64,000 nucleotides of DNA from Escherichia coli (GTDB taxonomy: Bacteria; Pseudomonadota; Gammaproteobacteria; Enterobacterales; Enterobacteriaceae): assembly GCF_022846255.1 (NCBI RefSeq), contig NZ_AP025682.1; one strand, written 5' to 3'. The position numbers were made by a program, and so were the translations under genes. Below, piece after piece: positions 6,871-24,971 of this stretch (its first letter is position 1; every line of letters starts with the position of its first letter). The notes beneath the pieces were generated by a model. It had not been told where the DNA came from. It did no database searches and saw only the letters and a program-made list of their open reading frames with translations.

Positions 6871-6980
6871 GCCCCTCACCCTAACCCTCTCCCCAAAGGG
6901 GCGAGGGGACCGATCGAGCACGGTGTTAAAATCGGCGCTGGTTTTCTCCCTCTCCCTGTGGGAGGGGGTCGGGGTGAGGG
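6871..6980. repeat. Intergenic palindromic repeat (CCCTCTCCC...GGGAGGGGG family), two inverted units
   Basis: gcccctcaccctaaccctctccccaaaggggcgagggg and ctccctctccctgtgggagggggtcggggtgaggg form nested inverted repeats; related copies at 23085-23140 and 25741-25824. Confidence 0.6.
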
Positions 6981-9484: not shown

Positions 9485-9561
9485 TGCCTGATGCGCTTCG
9501 CTTATCAGGCCTACGGATCGATCACGTCTTGTAGGCAGATAAGGCGTTTACGCCGCATCCG
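9485..9561. repeat. REP elements (two inverted units)
   Basis: tgcctgatgcgcttcgcttatcaggcctac and gtaggcagataaggcgtttacgccgcatccgg match the REP consensus. Confidence 0.7.
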
Positions 9562-16456: not shown

Positions 16457-16584
16457 AGGGTGAACGATATAAGTAGCGACATTAATCAGGATGTTCTGAA
16501 GCGTATCACCGGTGGGATTAACAAGTTCGAATTAAACGATAATAAAAATATTATTTGTTTATAAACAATGAGTTATAACCGCAG

Positions 16585-16663
16585 GCCGGATAAAGCGTTT
16601 ACGCCGCATCCGGCAATCGTGCACCGGTGCCTGATGCGACGCTGCGCGTCTTATCAGGCCTAC
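16585..16663. repeat. REP elements (two units)
   Basis: gccggataaagcgtttacgccgcatccggc and gtgcctgatgcgacgctgcgcgtcttatcaggcctac. Confidence 0.7.
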
Positions 16664-16842
16664 AGTTCGTGCAATGTTTTATGACGATGCCCTATATCTC
16701 GCCCGTTAATAATTTAATTATTTTTTCACCCTATTAATAATTTGCCCCTTTCACTCCCCCTCTATTTAATACCTCACCTTGTGTCACTGCCGGATTTGCG
16801 TGCACAAAATCGCCCATACCATTACAGCAGAGAAAGTAAGCC

Positions 16843-18058: not shown

Positions 18059-18807
18059 AACGCCGTACTCAACTGACGCTGGGCCTGGCGCTGCTGGCGC
18101 TCGCCCCGCTGGCGCTCGCCCAGGGCGGCGATATCGCGCTGCTTAACGTGGTGACCCACGGCAACACTCAGGAGTACAGCGTCAAAATTCAGGTACTGAT
18201 TCTGATGACCCTCGTCGGTTTGCTGCCGACGATGGTGCTGATGATGACCTGCTTTACGCGCTTTATTATCGTGCTGTCGCTGCTGCGCCAGGCGCTGGGG
18301 CTGCAACAAACGCCGCCGAACCGCATTCTGATTGGTATTGCGCTCTCACTCACCCTGCTGGTAATGCGCCCCATCTGGCTCAATATTTACGACCACGCGG
18401 TAGTGCCGTTTGAAAACGATCAGATTACCCTGACAGATGCGTTAAGCACCGCCGCGACGCCGCTGAAACGCTTTATGCTGGCGCAGACCGACAAAAAAGC
18501 GATGGCGCAAATCATGACCATCGGCGGCGCGAAGGGCAATGCCGCCGACCAGGATCTCTCCATCGTGGTGCCCGCCTATGTACTGAGCGAGCTGAAAACC
18601 GCCTTCCAGATTGGCTTTATGATTTACATCCCGTTTCTGGTTATCGACCTGATTGTCGCCAGCGTATTGATGGCGATGGGGATGATGATGCTGTCGCCGC
18701 TGATTGTTTCGCTACCCTTTAAACTGATGCTGTTTGTGCTGATTGACGGCTGGTCGCTGACCATCGGCACGCTCACCACCAGCATTCGCGGGCTGGGGCT
18801 GGGCTGA
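18055..18807 (+). CDS. lfiP: Flagellar export apparatus protein FliP
   Basis: 250 aa; signal peptide plus polytopic membrane profile of FliP. Confidence 0.85.
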   Translation: MKRRTQLTLGLALLALAPLALAQGGDIALLNVVTHGNTQEYSVKIQVLILMTLVGLLPTMVLMMTCFTRFIIVLSLLRQALGLQQTPPNRILIGIALSLTLLVMRPIWLNIYDHAVVPFENDQITLTDALSTAATPLKRFMLAQTDKKAMAQIMTIGGAKGNAADQDLSIVVPAYVLSELKTAFQIGFMIYIPFLVIDLIVASVLMAMGMMMLSPLIVSLPFKLMLFVLIDGWSLTIGTLTTSIRGLGLG

Positions 18808-18809
18808 TT

Positions 18810-19082
18810 ATGTTGACCGTAGACGTAGCCGCCGACATTGTCGCCAGCGGCATTAAAGTAGTGATTTTGCTGGTTTCGGTACTGGTGGTGCCAAGCCTGC
18901 TGGTCGGCCTGCTGGTGAGCGTGTTCCAGGCGGTGACGCAGATTAACGAACAGACCCTGAGCTTTTTGCCAAGGCTGATTGTCACGCTGGTGGTGCTGGG
19001 CATGTGCGGCAAATGGATGATTATCCAGTTGCATGATCTCTGCATTCACCTGTTTACCCAGGCCGCGTTGCTGGTTCATTGA
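18810..19082 (+). CDS. lfiQ: Flagellar export apparatus protein FliQ
   Basis: 90-aa two-helix membrane protein between fliP and fliR. Confidence 0.85.
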   Translation: MLTVDVAADIVASGIKVVILLVSVLVVPSLLVGLLVSVFQAVTQINEQTLSFLPRLIVTLVVLGMCGKWMIIQLHDLCIHLFTQAALLVH

Positions 19083-19083
19083 G

Positions 19084-19866
19084 ATGCGCACAAGCGACGT
19101 TACGCAACTGATGGATCTGGCGCTGGGGCTGTGGTTTCCCTTCGTGCGCATTATGGCGTTTCTGCGCTATATGCCGGTGCTGGATAACAGCGCCCTGACC
19201 GCGCGCGTGCGGATTATTTTGTCGCTGGCGCTGGCGATCATCATCACGCCGTTGATCCCCCATCCCATTCCCCACGACCTGCTTTCGCTCAATAGCCTGA
19301 TCCTGACGGTAGAGCAAATTTTATGGGGCATGTTGTTCGGGCTGATGTTTCAGTTTCTGTTTCTGGCGCTGCAACTGGCCGGGCAAATTCTCTCGTTCAA
19401 TATGGGGATGAGCATGGCGGTGATGAACGACCCGAGCAGCGGCGCATCGACCACTGTGCTGGCAGAGTTAATTAACGTTTACGCGATCCTGCTGTTTTTT
19501 GCCATGGACGGGCATCTGCTGCTGGTAAGCGTGCTGTATAAGGGTTTCACCTACTGGCCGATTGGCAACGCCCTGCATCCGCAAACCCTGCGCACCATCG
19601 CGCTGGCCTTTAGCTGGGTGCTGGCGTCGGCATCGCTGCTGGCGCTGCCGACCACTTTTATCATGCTGATTGTGCAGGGCTGCTTTGGCCTGCTCAACCG
19701 CATTGCGCCGCCGCTGAACCTTTTTTCTCTTGGCTTTCCTATCAACATGCTGGCGGGGCTGGTCTGCTTCGCCACCCTGCTCTACAACCTGCCGGATCAC
19801 TATCTGCATCTGGCGAATTTTGTGTTGCAGCAACTCGACGCGCTGAAAGGTCACTATGGCGGATAG
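19084..19866 (+). CDS. lfiR: Flagellar export apparatus protein FliR
   Basis: Polytopic membrane protein; likely ATG at 19084 immediately after the fliQ stop (ORF track starts at 19033). Confidence 0.8.
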   Translation: MRTSDVTQLMDLALGLWFPFVRIMAFLRYMPVLDNSALTARVRIILSLALAIIITPLIPHPIPHDLLSLNSLILTVEQILWGMLFGLMFQFLFLALQLAGQILSFNMGMSMAVMNDPSSGASTTVLAELINVYAILLFFAMDGHLLLVSVLYKGFTYWPIGNALHPQTLRTIALAFSWVLASASLLALPTTFIMLIVQGCFGLLNRIAPPLNLFSLGFPINMLAGLVCFATLLYNLPDHYLHLANFVLQQLDALKGHYGG

Positions 19867-20995
19867 CAGCAGCGAAGAAAAAACAGAGAAACCCTCGGCG
19901 CAAAAGCTGCGTAAAGCGCGTGAAGAGGGGCAGCTACCGCGCTCGAAGGATATGGGGCTGGCGGCGAGCCTGTTTGCAGCGTTTGTGGTGATCTCCAGTA
20001 GTTTTCCGTGGTATGCCGATTTTGTGCGCGAGAGTTTTATCAGCGTGCATCAGTACGCACAGGAGATTAATAACCCGCAGGTGATCGGTCAGTTTCTGCG
20101 CCATCACCTGTTAATTCTCGGCAAGTTTATCCTTACGTTGCTGCCGATGCCCGCCGCCGCACTGCTCTCCTCACTGGTGCCCGGCGGCTGGCTGTTTCTG
20201 CCGAAAAAAATCCTCCCGGATTTCAGCAAAATCAGCCCGTTAAAAGGCATTGGGCGACTGTTTTCCAGCGAACATCTGGCGGAAACGGGGAAGATGACAG
20301 TGAAGTCGGTGGTGGTGCTGGTAATGCTGTGGGTAAGCCTGCGCAATAACTTTGCCGCCTTTCTCGGCCTGCAGGCGCTGCCGTTCAAACTGGCGATGAA
20401 TGATGGATTATCGCTCTACGCCAGCGTGATGCGCAACTTTGTCATCCTGTTTATCTTCTTTGCGTTAATCGACGTGCCGCTGGCGAAAGCCCTGTTCACC
20501 AAAGGGCTGAAGATGACCAAGCAGGAGCTGAAAGAAGAGTACAAAAATCAGGAAGGCAAGCCGGAAGTGAAGGCGCGCGTGCGGCGGCTGCAACGGCAAC
20601 TGGCGATGGGGCAAATTCGCAAAGTGGTGCCGAAAGCCAACGTGGTGATCACCAACCCGACCCACTACGCCGTGGCGTTACAGTATGACTCATCACGTGC
20701 CGCCGCACCGTTTGTGGTGGCGAAAGGCACCGATGAAATCGCCCTCTATATTCGCCAGGTCGCCACTGAAAATCAGGTGGAAGTGGTGGAGTTCCCGCGA
20801 CTCGCGCGCTCGGTTTACTACACCACCCAGGTGAACCAGCAAATTCCGTTTCAGCTTTACCGGGCCATCGCCCACGTTCTGACCTACATCCTGCAAATGA
20901 AACACTGGCGCGAGGGCGCACAGCCGCGCCCGGCCCTGAACAGACATATTTCCATTCCCAAAGAGGTACTTAAACTGGATGGCGAAAACAACTAA
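19856..20995 (+). CDS. lfhB: Flagellar export switch protein FlhB
   Basis: 379 aa; N-terminus EKTEKPSAQKLRKAREEGQLPRSKD and the NPTH autocleavage motif (VVITNPTHYAVAL). Confidence 0.9.
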   Translation: MADSSSEEKTEKPSAQKLRKAREEGQLPRSKDMGLAASLFAAFVVISSSFPWYADFVRESFISVHQYAQEINNPQVIGQFLRHHLLILGKFILTLLPMPAAALLSSLVPGGWLFLPKKILPDFSKISPLKGIGRLFSSEHLAETGKMTVKSVVVLVMLWVSLRNNFAAFLGLQALPFKLAMNDGLSLYASVMRNFVILFIFFALIDVPLAKALFTKGLKMTKQELKEEYKNQEGKPEVKARVRRLQRQLAMGQIRKVVPKANVVITNPTHYAVALQYDSSRAAAPFVVAKGTDEIALYIRQVATENQVEVVEFPRLARSVYYTTQVNQQIPFQLYRAIAHVLTYILQMKHWREGAQPRPALNRHISIPKEVLKLDGENN

Positions 20996-23072
20996 ATCGT
21001 TCCTCGCGCCGCTGCGCGGCGGCAATCTCGGCGTGCCGTTGGTGATCCTGTGTATTCTGGCGATGGTTATTCTGCCGCTGCCGCCTGCGCTGCTGGATAT
21101 TCTGTTCACCTTCAACATTGTGCTGGCGGTGATGGTGCTGCTGGTGGCCGTGTCGGCGAAAAGGCCGCTGGAATTCAGCCTGTTCCCGACCATTTTGCTG
21201 ATCACCACCTTAATGCGTCTGACGCTTAACGTTGCTTCTACGCGCGTGGTGCTGCTACACGGGCATCTCGGCGCGGGCGCGGCGGGTAAGGTGATTGAGT
21301 CGTTTGGTCAGGTGGTGATTGGCGGCAACTTTGTCGTCGGTTTCGTGGTATTTATCATCCTGATGATCATCAACTTTATCGTCGTAACCAAGGGGGCCGA
21401 GCGTATTTCCGAGGTTTCTGCCCGCTTTACCCTGGACGCGATGCCCGGCAAACAGATGGCGATTGACGCCGATCTTAACGCCGGGTTGATCAACCAGACG
21501 CAGGCGCAAACCCGGCGTAAAGATGTCGCCAGCGAGGCCGATTTCTACGGCGCAATGGACGGGGCATCAAAATTTGTGCGCGGGGACGCCATCGCCGGGA
21601 TGATGATTCTGGCGATCAACCTGATCGGCGGCGTCTGTATCGGCATCTTCAAATACAACCTGAGCGCCGACGCCGCCTTCCAGCAATATGTGCTGATGAC
21701 TATCGGCGATGGGCTGGTGGCGCAAATCCCTTCCCTGCTGCTCTCCACCGCGGCGGCGATTATCGTCACCCGCGTCAGCGATAACGGTGATATCGCCCAT
21801 GACGTGCGTAATCAGTTGCTGGCAAGCCCGTCGGTTCTCTACACCGCCACTGGAATTATGTTCGTGCTGGCGGTGGTGCCGGGAATGCCGCATTTCCCGT
21901 TCCTGATGTTCAGCGCCCTGCTTGGTTTTACCGGCTGGCGGATGAGCAAGCGCCCGCAAGCGGCGGAGGCGGAAGAGAAAAGCCTCGAAACGCTAACCCG
22001 TACGATGACAGAAACCAGCGAGCAACAGGTCAGTTGGGAAACTATTCCGCTGATCGAACCTATCAGTTTAAGCCTCGGCTACAAACTGGTGGCGCTGGTG
22101 GATAAAGCGCAGGGCAACCCGCTCACCCAGCGTATTCGCGGCGTACGTCAGGTGATTTCCGACGGCAACGGCGTGCTGCTGCCGGAGATCCGTATTCGGG
22201 AAAACTTCCGTCTCAAGCCCAGCCAGTACGCCATTTTCATCAACGGCATTAAGGCTGATGAAGCGGATATTCCGGCGGATAAACTGATGGCCCTGCCCTC
22301 CAGCGAAACCTACGGCGAGATTGACGGCGTACTGGGGAATGACCCGGCATATGGGATGCCGGTCACCTGGATTCAGCCTGCGCAGAAAGCGAAGGCGCTG
22401 AATATGGGGTATCAGGTGATCGACAGCGCCAGCGTGATTGCCACCCATGTGAACAAGATTGTGCGCAGCTATATTCCTGACCTCTTTAACTATGACGATA
22501 TTACGCAGTTGCATAACCGCCTGTCGTCGATGGCACCGCGACTGGCGGAAGATTTGAGCGCGGCACTCAATTACAGCCAATTGCTGAAAGTGTACCGGGC
22601 GCTGCTGACCGAAGGCGTTTCCCTGCGCGATATCGTCACCATCGCCACCGTGCTGGTCGCCAGTAGTGCGGTGACCAAAGATCATATTCTGCTGGCGGCA
22701 GATGTGCGCCTGGCGCTGCGGCGCAGCATTACCCATCCGTTCGTTCGCAAGCAGGAGCTGACGGTGTATACGCTGAATAATGAGCTGGAAAATCTGCTGA
22801 CCAACGTGGTGAATCAGGCGCAACAGGCCGGCAAAGTGATGCTCGACAGCGTGCCAGTGGACCCGAATATGCTCAACCAGTTCCAGAGTACGATGCCGCA
22901 GGTAAAAGAGCAGATGAAAGCGGCGGGGAAAGATCCGGTGCTGCTGGTGCCTCCGCAGCTGCGCCCTTTGCTGGCGCGCTATGCAAGGTTGTTTGCGCCG
23001 GGGCTGCATGTGCTGTCGTATAACGAAGTGCCGGATGAGTTGGAGTTGAAGATAATGGGGGCGTTGAGTTGA
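20979..23072 (+). CDS. lfhA: Flagellar export gate protein FlhA
   Basis: 697 aa; FHxxK-type N-terminal TM region and large cytoplasmic domain. Confidence 0.9.
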   Translation: MAKTTKSFLAPLRGGNLGVPLVILCILAMVILPLPPALLDILFTFNIVLAVMVLLVAVSAKRPLEFSLFPTILLITTLMRLTLNVASTRVVLLHGHLGAGAAGKVIESFGQVVIGGNFVVGFVVFIILMIINFIVVTKGAERISEVSARFTLDAMPGKQMAIDADLNAGLINQTQAQTRRKDVASEADFYGAMDGASKFVRGDAIAGMMILAINLIGGVCIGIFKYNLSADAAFQQYVLMTIGDGLVAQIPSLLLSTAAAIIVTRVSDNGDIAHDVRNQLLASPSVLYTATGIMFVLAVVPGMPHFPFLMFSALLGFTGWRMSKRPQAAEAEEKSLETLTRTMTETSEQQVSWETIPLIEPISLSLGYKLVALVDKAQGNPLTQRIRGVRQVISDGNGVLLPEIRIRENFRLKPSQYAIFINGIKADEADIPADKLMALPSSETYGEIDGVLGNDPAYGMPVTWIQPAQKAKALNMGYQVIDSASVIATHVNKIVRSYIPDLFNYDDITQLHNRLSSMAPRLAEDLSAALNYSQLLKVYRALLTEGVSLRDIVTIATVLVASSAVTKDHILLAADVRLALRRSITHPFVRKQELTVYTLNNELENLLTNVVNQAQQAGKVMLDSVPVDPNMLNQFQSTMPQVKEQMKAAGKDPVLLVPPQLRPLLARYARLFAPGLHVLSYNEVPDELELKIMGALS

Positions 23073-23084
23073 TGGGGGAGACTA

Positions 23085-23140
23085 TATAAGGTCTCGGACT
23101 GTCCCCTCGCCCCTTTGGGGCGAGGGAGAAAAACGTGTAC
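23085..23140. repeat. Palindromic repeat (CCCCTCGCCCC...GGGGCGAGGG)
   Basis: gtcccctcgcccctttggggcgagggag perfect hairpin between convergent lfhA and yafL; same family as 6871-6980; could also act as a terminator. Confidence 0.6.
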
Positions 23141-23169
23141 GACTTTAACTTTTTCGCAGTATTGCCGTC

Positions 23170-23928
23170 CTACAAAATCGTCTCTTCCGTCAAAATCCGC
23201 CGCGCGCCTAAAAAATGATCCTGCCAGAAAGGTTCAGCTAACCGGCTTATCCGAATGGTTTCGCCGGTACGTGGTGACTCGATAAACTGACCGTCTCCCA
23301 GATACACCCCCATATGATCGGCTATCTCGCGGCTGTGAATATGGAAAAACAGCAAATCTCCCCGGCGCAGGTCGTTATTCGCCACAATCGTTGCCCGACG
23401 GTAGTGGTACATCTCATTGGCCGTGCGCGGGAGCTTAGCCTCAAGGATCTTGTTGTAGGCATAAAAAACCAACCCGCTACAGTCGAAGCCTTTATCAGGC
23501 CGCGTGCCCCCCCAGATATAAGGCTTACCTAGCTGCTGCTCCAGGCGGTGAATCGCCACTTCGGTGATGTTATGTAGATGGTCGCTGCTTAAGAAATGAT
23601 TATTCTCCACCAACGCCTGCCAGCGTCTGTCACTCGCCTTGAGCGGCGCAGGAAACCATTCTGGATGCTGTTTTATCTGCTCCCGATTATGCTGGCGCAG
23701 CGCCCTTCTGCTTTTGGCATTGCCTTCCACAATATAGCTGGCCTGCTTTTTCAGATGGGTTTGGTACTGTTTTAATAAACGCGCACGGTTTTGCATCCGC
23801 TGGCGGGCGGCGTAGCTAAAAGAGATATGTGATGTGGTGGCGCTGGCGAGTAAAGGGAGCAAAACGCATAACGAAAACACGCCTGGATGCAGAAATCTGC
23901 CGTGCAAGAACGAAGACATGAAGGACAT
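23170..23928 (-). CDS. yafL: NlpC/P60-family lipoprotein peptidase YafL
   Basis: DCSGLVFYAYN catalytic Cys motif and later His; signal peptide. Confidence 0.8.
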   Translation of the reverse strand: MSFMSSFLHGRFLHPGVFSLCVLLPLLASATTSHISFSYAARQRMQNRARLLKQYQTHLKKQASYIVEGNAKSRRALRQHNREQIKQHPEWFPAPLKASDRRWQALVENNHFLSSDHLHNITEVAIHRLEQQLGKPYIWGGTRPDKGFDCSGLVFYAYNKILEAKLPRTANEMYHYRRATIVANNDLRRGDLLFFHIHSREIADHMGVYLGDGQFIESPRTGETIRISRLAEPFWQDHFLGARRILTEETIL

Positions 23929-24230
23929 AAACCAGCTGAATGAAGGTGAGAATTTTAAAAGACCGGAGGAGTAAACGGGATTATTAATTGCTTATTTGCA
24001 TATTACTATTGCGGTTTCATAATCTTAGGAAATAAGAAATAAATCTACAATCCATGCGCTTTTCGGACTCTTGAAAACTGCCCCTGTGCTAAATTTGTAA
24101 ACCCTGCGCCGACAGGCTTGCGTAAAACTCTTTTGGTGATAATGTGAGCCTTCCAAATCCAGACTATTCCGATTTGGGATTCATTTTGCCGTCCTGGCGT
24201 GTGTAACCGTTTTATCAAGGAATAAGCAGT

Positions 24231-24971
24231 ATGCGTAAAATCGCATTAATTCTTGCGATGTTGTTGATCCCGTGCGTTTCGTTTGCCGGTTTGCTGGGCA
24301 GCAGTAGCTCGACCACGCCAGTGAGCAAAGAGTATAAGCAGCAGTTGATGGGATCCCCTGTCTACATCCAGATCTTCAAGGAAGAACATACGCTCGATCT
24401 CTACGTCAAAATGGGCGAGCAATATCAACTGCTCGACAGCTATAAAATCTGTAAATATTCCGGCGGCTTAGGGCCAAAACAGCGTCAGGGCGATTTCAAA
24501 AGCCCGGAAGGGTTTTATAGCGTCCAGCGTAATCAGTTAAAACCAGACAGCCGTTACTACAAAGCGATTAATATTGGATTCCCAAACGCCTATGACCGTG
24601 CGCATGGTTATGAAGGGAAATACCTGATGATTCACGGCGATTGTGTTTCCATCGGCTGCTACGCGATGACCAATCAGGGTATTGATGAGATCTTCCAGTT
24701 CGTTACTGGTGCGCTGGTGTTTGGTCAGCCGAGCGTGCAAGTGAGTATTTATCCGTTCCGCATGACCGACGCCAATATGAAGCGCCATAAATATTCCAAC
24801 TTTAAGGACTTCTGGGAGCAACTGAAGCCGGGCTACGACTACTTTGAGCAAACCCGTAAGCCACCGACCGTTTCTGTGGTCAATGGCCGTTACGTGGTCA
24901 GCAAGCCGTTAAGCCACGAAGTTGTGCAGCCACAACTGGCATCAAACTACACGCTCCCCGAGGCAAAATAA
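24231..24971 (+). CDS. yafK: L,D-transpeptidase-like protein YafK
   Basis: YkuD-like [12 protein letters not shown] motif; signal peptide. Confidence 0.8.

Follow-up and report, generated by a model that had tools for sequence, protein, structure and literature searches.

Absence of rayT and dinJ-yafQ beside yafL in an Escherichia coli chromosome: probable allelic replacement at one junction and a putatively ancestral gap at the other

Introduction

In Escherichia coli K-12, the gene yafL lies between two modules, rayT, which encodes a REP-associated tyrosine transposase (RAYT), on the lfhA side and the toxin-antitoxin pair dinJ-yafQ on the dpaA (yafK) side. A first-pass annotation of the E. 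coli DNA analysed here, a stretch of 64,000 nucleotides referred to as the window, described this arrangement, and the gene order of MG1655 (dpaA, yafQ, dinJ, yafL, rayT, lfhA pseudogene, lafU pseudogene) agrees with it. In the window, both modules appeared to be missing and the sites appeared to be marked by palindromic repeats, which raises the question of whether rayT and dinJ-yafQ were acquired later in the K-12 lineage or were lost from the chromosome under study.

Strain differences at both sites have been described before. Park et al. 2021 divided E. coli genomes into those with and those without a RAYT gene (PMC8049555, Fig. 2), and rayT-less E. coli genomes are also found in the RAREFAN preprint. 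González-Alba et al. 2019 reported that yafQ-dinJ is limited to the EB1A lineage and phylogroup F (PMC6896753), and an uneven spread of dinJ-yafQ among phylogroups is attributed to Fiedoruk 2015 where that work is cited in PMC7167474. The two absences beside yafL are thus common and already described, and they represent two independent, ordinary presence/absence polymorphisms. The finding matters little in itself; what is added to the known biology is mechanistic detail.

Gene order and gene content around yafL

The genes of the window are arranged in the order lfhA (plus strand), yafL (minus), dpaA/yafK (plus), yafJ (minus), gmhA (minus) and fadE (plus), with the Flag-2 genes to the left of lfhA, which is the K-12 order reversed. 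lfhA (20979-23072, plus strand; identified as an ORF and by tblastn) encodes the paralogue of FlhA that belongs to the Flag-2 lateral-flagellar cluster, a full-length product of 697 amino acids ending in MGALS before the stop codon, whereas the K-12 lfhA is a pseudogene, which aligns to the window only from 21369 onward. yafL (23170-23928, minus strand) encodes an NlpC/P60 (C40) peptidase (Pfam PF00877, E = 8e-33), and the RefSeq start for the identical sequence corresponds to position 23919. The product of dpaA (yafK; 24231-24971, plus strand), a YkuD-fold peptidoglycan amidase (Pfam PF03734), shares 99.6% amino-acid identity with K-12 DpaA. The Flag-2 lateral-flagellar cluster, which occupies positions 1-23072, appears intact; K-12 and many of the compared strains keep only lfhA/lafU remnants. 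The source chromosome is proposed to be E. coli-like and to combine an intact Flag-2 cluster with a backbone that resembles phylogroup B2.

The two intergenic regions had been estimated at about 100 and 300 bp, which fits their actual lengths of 97 nt for the convergent lfhA-yafL gap (23073-23169) and 302 nt for the divergent yafL-dpaA gap (23929-24230), the latter being devoid of any gene or repeat-family element. A tblastn search over the 64 kb with RayT, DinJ, YafQ, HicA and HicB yielded no homologue (best E = 0.94); the best E value was 0.94 for K-12 RayT, so there is no RAYT ORF in the window, and 1.2-4.8 for DinJ and YafQ, again with no homologous ORF. The reported absence of both modules was thereby borne out for these 64 kb, and rayT might have a copy elsewhere in the genome. 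Mechanical ORFs of 43-57 amino acids overlap both gaps; however, the four small ORFs within or overlapping the gaps gave zero Pfam matches, and RefSeq annotates no gene in the gaps of strains with identical sequence. An Rfam search of 22500-24700 (E <= 1) returned just two chance-level matches, to a eukaryotic antizyme frameshift element and a miRNA, and promoter and terminator predictions between 22900 and 24400 did not exceed the counts obtained for shuffled sequences. The alignment to K-12, which had been suggested as a check, was carried out and revealed different gene content at both junctions, with 896 versus 97 nt on the lfhA side and 838 versus 243 nt on the dpaA side. Segments have been replaced at both junctions, and a clean insertion accounts for neither difference.

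The lfhA-yafL gap contains the remnant of a BoxC pair

Homology of lfhA to K-12 ends at 23067 and resumes within yafL at 23165. In between, K-12 carries two BIME arrays around rayT, and the window carries 97 unrelated nucleotides. These include a perfect palindrome at 23104-23126, CCCTCGCCCC-TTT-GGGGCGAGGG, with a 10-bp stem and a 3-nt loop. This 23-mer was not matched in any of 100 shuffles, and another copy of the family is located at 6885-6907. The BoxC/PIT/TMECO consensus consists of three blocks, CCCTCNCCC-N3-6-GGGNGAGGG-N3-GGGNGAGGG (PMC4666352). When 23104-23126 is compared with it, the sequence reads CCCTCGCCC, CTTTG, GGGCGAGGG, followed by AGA and AAAACGTGT. The first two blocks agree with the consensus, and there is no third, G-rich block. 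Complete BoxC units are present elsewhere in the window, at 6873-6907 (minus) and 6948-6980 (plus).

Membership of the palindrome in the family follows from descent. VCSW7, 21 other E. coli genomes and Pseudocitrobacter vendiensis possess two complete inverted BoxC units at the orthologous site, with identical flanks, and the window differs from these double-BoxC alleles by a 64-nt deletion; the same inner 64 nt are also missing in ECONIH1 and SC418. The intact pair folds into a hairpin of about 36 bp (DNA, -47.6 kcal/mol, z = -8.8). The deletion is bounded by two imperfect direct repeats of 10 nt, GGGGAGAGGG, which is kept in SC418, and GGGGCGAGGG, which is kept in the window and ECONIH1. Slippage or recombination between these direct repeats would have produced the deletion, as two separate events or as a single one that was resolved differently. 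In the proposed course, an allele with two inverted BoxC/TMECO units would have lost 64 nt between the repeats, so that the interior of the hairpin disappeared and its base was left as the perfect 10-bp palindrome. The palindrome is a collapsed remnant of an inverted BoxC/PIT/TMECO pair; it is neither a REP nor a rayT scar, and the repeat family that had been implied for it at first was the wrong one.

As expected for a BoxC element, the remnant is intergenic, flanked by the stop codons of lfhA and yafL, which converge here. A smaller hairpin, GAGACT-ATATAA-GGTCTC at 23078-23095, was found by RNA folding and is kept in all BoxC-type alleles. A scan for a GC-rich hairpin followed by a U-tract detected no intrinsic terminator in this gap, and the palindrome hairpin lacks a U-tract on either strand, being followed by AGAAAAAC on the plus strand and by ACAGTCC on the minus strand. 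Earlier work, as cited in PMC4666352, ascribes neither promoter nor terminator activity to PIT elements, and Holder et al. 2015 connected TMECO loci with elevated local rearrangement and genome variability (PMC4666352).

A regular-expression scan for canonical REPs (GTAGGCCGGATAAGGCG...GCCGGATGCGGC) gave no match in 23073-24230; within the window, REPs are found only near 685-721, 9501-9514 and 16577-16664. The only REP-like trace in the gap is GTAGGACGG (23165-23173, minus strand), which overlaps the yafL stop codon and is identical to the initial 9 nt of the REP abutting yafL in rayT-bearing alleles. In the yafL-dpaA gap, the inverted repeats are all weak, AT-rich and imperfect, and no palindrome of a repeat family is present. 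The statement that palindromic repeats mark the sites therefore holds for the lfhA-yafL gap and fails for the yafL-dpaA gap.

A probable recombinant patch of about 1.15 kb covers the rayT-less junction

The mosaic structure of the locus was tested by binned divergence, by site-by-site comparison and by runs of informative sites. The B2-type strains CFIAFB20120266 and UPEC129, which carry rayT, show zero mismatches to the window across 21615-22210 and 23339-24300. Between these stretches lies a recombinant patch (22211-23338) that comprises the 3' end of lfhA, the whole first gap and the 3' end of yafL, and whose breakpoints fall within 22167-22211 and 23338-23377. CFIAFB20120266 differs from the window at 54 of 1,031 aligned nucleotides inside the patch and at 0 of 1,558 nucleotides in the flanks (Fisher p = 1e-22). 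Inside the patch, the window follows the allele of the ECONIH1 type, which is rayT-less and has the same short junction; this allele occurs in ST648-like strains, probably of phylogroup F. The exact mosaic or its donor was not found among the complete genomes: identity to the patch reaches 97.6% at best and is below 99% in all of them, so the donor is unsampled.

In the preferred account, rayT and its flanking REP/BIME arrays would have filled the slot before E. coli and E. albertii separated, and a homologous-recombination patch of about 1.15-1.2 kb would later have exchanged the rayT (or BIME) allele for a rayT-less BoxC-type allele on a B2-like backbone. The donor would have been another E. 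coli lineage, whose closest relatives are ECONIH1-like and probably belong to phylogroup F. Removal of rayT from the window lineage by an allelic replacement of about 1.15 kb, and not by excision, is the most likely reading of the sequence comparison. Gene content, breakpoints, SNP mosaic, allele frequencies and outgroup states are direct observations, and the direction of recombination is an argument from parsimony: transfer toward the rayT-less state is favored, since rayT or BIMEs occur in every close relative of the backbone. Of the two possibilities raised at the outset for rayT, loss in this lineage thus gains support from the breakpoints and the SNP mosaic, albeit as an exchange of alleles.

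Several further features were observed near the patch. In CFIAFB20120266, the closest backbone relative, rayT is annotated with an internal stop (locus L032, 4989-5486). The segment 19000-20500 of the window (Flag-2 fliR/flhB) is about 3% diverged from this strain, and 20500-21250 is free of mismatches; the divergent segment may be another recombination patch. A Chi site (GCTGGTGG) is situated at 22094-22101 on the plus strand, about 70-115 nt outside the left breakpoint, and the window contains 14 Chi sites compared with 2.2 expected from shuffles, an enrichment of a kind that is usual in E. coli. The Chi site was set aside as evidence for the patch, as its orientation has no clear mechanistic reading.

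Outgroups and the age of rayT at the lfhA-yafL slot

Species-representative genomes were scanned with YafL, and the resulting 25 loci were annotated by tblastn. The 12 Citrobacter loci contain neither rayT nor dinJ-yafQ, and yafL adjoins lfhA in them; in 10 of the 12, the yafL-lfhA gap measures only 43-44 nt and carries a simple hairpin. Phytobacter, Kluyvera and Atlantibacter also have yafL beside lfhA without rayT, and wherever dpaA lies upstream in loci of these four genera, dinJ-yafQ is absent. E. albertii and Escherichia sp. E1V33 possess rayT with flanking BIMEs at the slot and lack dinJ-yafQ, and Escherichia sp. MOD1-EC7003 has both rayT and dinJ-yafQ. Since rayT occupies the slot in E. 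albertii and in the two Escherichia sp. genomes, it would predate E. coli; its absence from the window would be secondary at the level of the genus, with older ancestors lacking it. An acquisition of rayT in the K-12 lineage, as proposed at first, finds no support in view of these three genomes.

The BoxC-type and hicAB-type alleles both end lfhA in ALS and a stop codon, and the BoxC-type allele shares this ending with Citrobacter. Because the ending, which is ancestral, is common to Citrobacter, the BoxC-type allele class could go back to a time before rayT arrived, and not to a deletion of rayT. The yafL-proximal flank of the BoxC-type allele shows no similarity to Citrobacter, and its comparisons with the hicAB-type and REP-type flanks are weak (23 of 500 shuffles scored as well).

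The junction is also polymorphic outside of Escherichia. The yafL and Flag-2 block of Pseudocitrobacter is 94-95% identical at the nucleotide level to window positions 18237-23830, with 99% amino-acid identity for LfhA (P. vendiensis, locus L006, 5051-10708; P. faecalis, locus L008). Upstream of the block, Pseudocitrobacter has Orn/Lys/Arg decarboxylase, EamA, TetR, LprI and MatE genes, not dpaA-yafJ-gmhA. At the yafL-lfhA junction, P. faecalis carries a rayT/BIME allele and P. vendiensis a double-BoxC allele. Judged from these sequences, the block looks like a recent inter-genus transfer, with the same junction polymorphism in both genera. On the 3.4-kb contig SFGJ01000062.1 (locus L005), which belongs to a metagenome-assembled genome labelled 'Clostridiales bacterium', lfhA and yafL are 93-94% identical to the window at the nucleotide level, and hicAB lies between them, with HicA and HicB 99-100% identical in amino-acid sequence to an E. 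coli strain; this contig is almost certainly an E. coli contamination of the bin.

Alternative explanations for the rayT-less junction

Three other explanations for the short gap have to be weighed against allelic replacement. That rayT was never in the window lineage, with the short gap being ancestral and rayT acquired later in K-12-like lineages, would agree with the absence of rayT between yafL and lfhA in Citrobacter, Kluyvera, Phytobacter and Atlantibacter and with the Citrobacter-like lfhA ending kept in the BoxC-type allele. It is nonetheless unlikely, as rayT and BIMEs are present at the slot in E. albertii, E1V33, MOD1-EC7003 and 66% of E. coli, the backbone is identical to that of rayT-bearing B2-type strains up to sharp breakpoints on both sides, and the 97-nt filler does not resemble the 44-nt gap of Citrobacter. 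The short gap could also be an assembly artefact in which REP/BIME repeats have collapsed. BIME arrays are repetitive and may collapse in short-read assemblies, but about 126 independently finished complete genomes share the junction and the filler is unique sequence instead of REP, which makes such an artefact practically negligible.

In-place deletion of rayT, either by recombination between REPs or by RayT catalysis and with the palindrome as the scar, has a precedent at this locus, since the junction of GPEC1165 retains BIMEs only; the 9 nt of GTAGGACGG at the yafL stop codon, which begin the adjoining REP in rayT alleles, could likewise be taken as a leftover. However, the gap is devoid of canonical REPs, none of the rayT alleles contains an equivalent of its 97 nt, and the change of junction was accompanied by 54 SNPs in the flanks. 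The palindrome is a member of an unrelated family, BoxC, and has an uncollapsed homologue at the same site in 22 genomes, and among the alleles inspected, none combines rayT/BIME with the BoxC filler. In-place excision is hence very improbable for the window, and a REP-mediated deletion was rejected because of the missing REPs and the joint change of junction and flanking SNPs. Allelic replacement accordingly forms part of the preferred account, which combines an ancestral empty yafL-dpaA gap, loss of rayT via the patch and a palindrome that represents a collapsed BoxC pair, and which as a whole is held to be probable.

The yafL-dpaA gap

Homology of yafL to K-12 stops at 23847, inside the signal-peptide codons, and resumes at 24091. 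The segment without a K-12 counterpart (23848-24090, delimited by blastn breakpoints) has 243 nt and includes the 5' end of yafL with its signal-peptide codons and the yafL-side promoter region; K-12 has in its place 838 nt with an alternative yafL 5' end, a promoter region, dinJ and yafQ. The edge of the dinJ-yafQ cassette thus lies inside yafL (window 23848-23928 versus locus L001, 6713-6785). The K-12-type and window-type YafL proteins have unrelated N-terminal signal-peptide regions (MSLPSIPSFVLSG... versus MSFMSSFLHGRFL...) and the same mature protein from ...SATTSH onward. The homology to Pseudocitrobacter likewise ends near the cassette edge in yafL, at 23830.

The gap of the window aligns base for base with E. 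albertii, Escherichia sp. E1V33 and an E. coli contig of strain SCPM-O-B-8794 (locus L009), and it aligns with Citrobacter in conserved blocks. From this collinearity, which is partial for Citrobacter, it follows that the empty dinJ-yafQ site would be ancestral; the comparison supports the view that the empty gap is the ancestral Escherichia form, which never received dinJ-yafQ, and that K-12 shows a derived state. The 243 nt would have given way, in K-12-like lineages, to an 838-nt cassette consisting of dinJ-yafQ, a promoter region and a different yafL signal-peptide end. Alternatively, dinJ-yafQ could once have been located between yafL and dpaA and have been deleted in the window lineage. 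Chromosomal toxin-antitoxin modules do decay, an example being the frameshifted yafQ of ECONIH1 (locus L030, 4380-4657), where the module decays in place, and dinJ-yafQ is carried by MOD1-EC7003, which belongs to Escherichia and is a species separate from E. coli in GTDB. This deletion is nevertheless improbable: the 243 nt absent from K-12, including the different yafL signal-peptide end, match E. albertii, E1V33 and the SCPM-O-B-8794 contig and, in blocks, Citrobacter; a deletion of dinJ-yafQ would not recreate outgroup sequence, and tblastn detected no trace of dinJ or yafQ in the window gap. The ancestral empty gap is therefore preferred for this junction. The suggestion that dinJ-yafQ was a later acquisition of the K-12 lineage was right in that the module was acquired elsewhere, and wrong in that it is not specific to K-12.

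Distribution of the junction states

The frequency of each state was determined across 5,426 complete E. coli genomes. rayT is present in 3,575 (66%) and missing in about 34%; it occurs in at most two places per genome and is almost always single copy where present. The hicAB cassette was detected in 1,480 genomes (27%), and every row inspected has hicAB in the lfhA-yafL slot; in CFSAN061763, the HicA/HicB pair takes the place of rayT (locus L003, 1977-2604). The window-type (BoxC-type) junction was found in 126 genomes (2.3%), 22 of which have the uncollapsed BoxC pair. The remainder, about 245 genomes, includes BIME-only junctions such as that of GPEC1165, in which rayT is gone and the REPs are kept. 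On the other side of yafL, dinJ-yafQ is present in 3,340 of the 5,426 genomes and missing from about 38%, and an uninterrupted gap as in the window is present in 2,082. Many of these empty gaps are 100% identical to that of the window, among them those of Nissle 1917, NU14, ATCC 11775 and the relatives of NC101, which belong to phylogroup B2. The toxin-antitoxin modules dinJ-yafQ and hicAB can flank yafL on either side, and their combinations vary.

Discussion

The gene order of K-12 is not the norm of the species, given that rayT is missing from about one third of the complete E. coli genomes and dinJ-yafQ from more than one third. The locus offers a clean case in which a RAYT gene was probably lost through a short recombination patch, not a deletion, and the orthologous intact and collapsed BoxC pairs constitute a natural record of hairpin-associated deletion. 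The dinJ-yafQ cassette, for its part, would have come together with a replacement for the signal-peptide end of yafL. At least four mutually exclusive fillings of the lfhA-yafL slot exist, namely rayT with BIMEs, BIMEs only, hicAB, and BoxC pairs or their collapsed remnant. It might be speculated, albeit tentatively, that this junction is a contested slot whose fillings move between E. coli phylogroups on recombination patches of about 1 kb and are shared with Pseudocitrobacter. If this were the case, natural rayT-null lineages would arise repeatedly by allele replacement, and the locus would be a ready natural experiment on the decay of REPIN populations after the loss of a RAYT.

Comparison with known systems

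The repeat in the lfhA-yafL gap resembles the BoxC/PIT/TMECO intrastrand-triplex repeats described by Holder et al. 2015 (PMC4666352) in its blocks 1 and 2 and in its intergenic site. Unlike complete BoxC units, the window copy lacks the third G-rich block and therefore cannot form the triplex, and what is left after the 64-nt internal deletion is a plain hairpin. The hicAB cassette allele, found for example in CFSAN061763, is an alternative rayT-less filling of the same lfhA-yafL slot and has the same lfhA ending; it differs from the window in carrying a HicA/HicB toxin-antitoxin pair and no BoxC, whereas the window has no HicAB homologue. The RAYT-REPIN system of K-12, with the Group 2 RAYT encoded by rayT (yafM), occupies the same chromosomal slot, and the flanking genes yafL and lfhA are homologous, with 94% nucleotide identity; in the window, however, 97 unrelated nucleotides replace 896 nt, and both rayT and canonical REPs are absent. 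Finally, the type II toxin-antitoxin system dinJ-yafQ of K-12 is located in the same divergent yafL-dpaA region as the second gap of the window, which lacks the module and instead keeps the 243 nt and the yafL N-terminus of the type that is probably ancestral.
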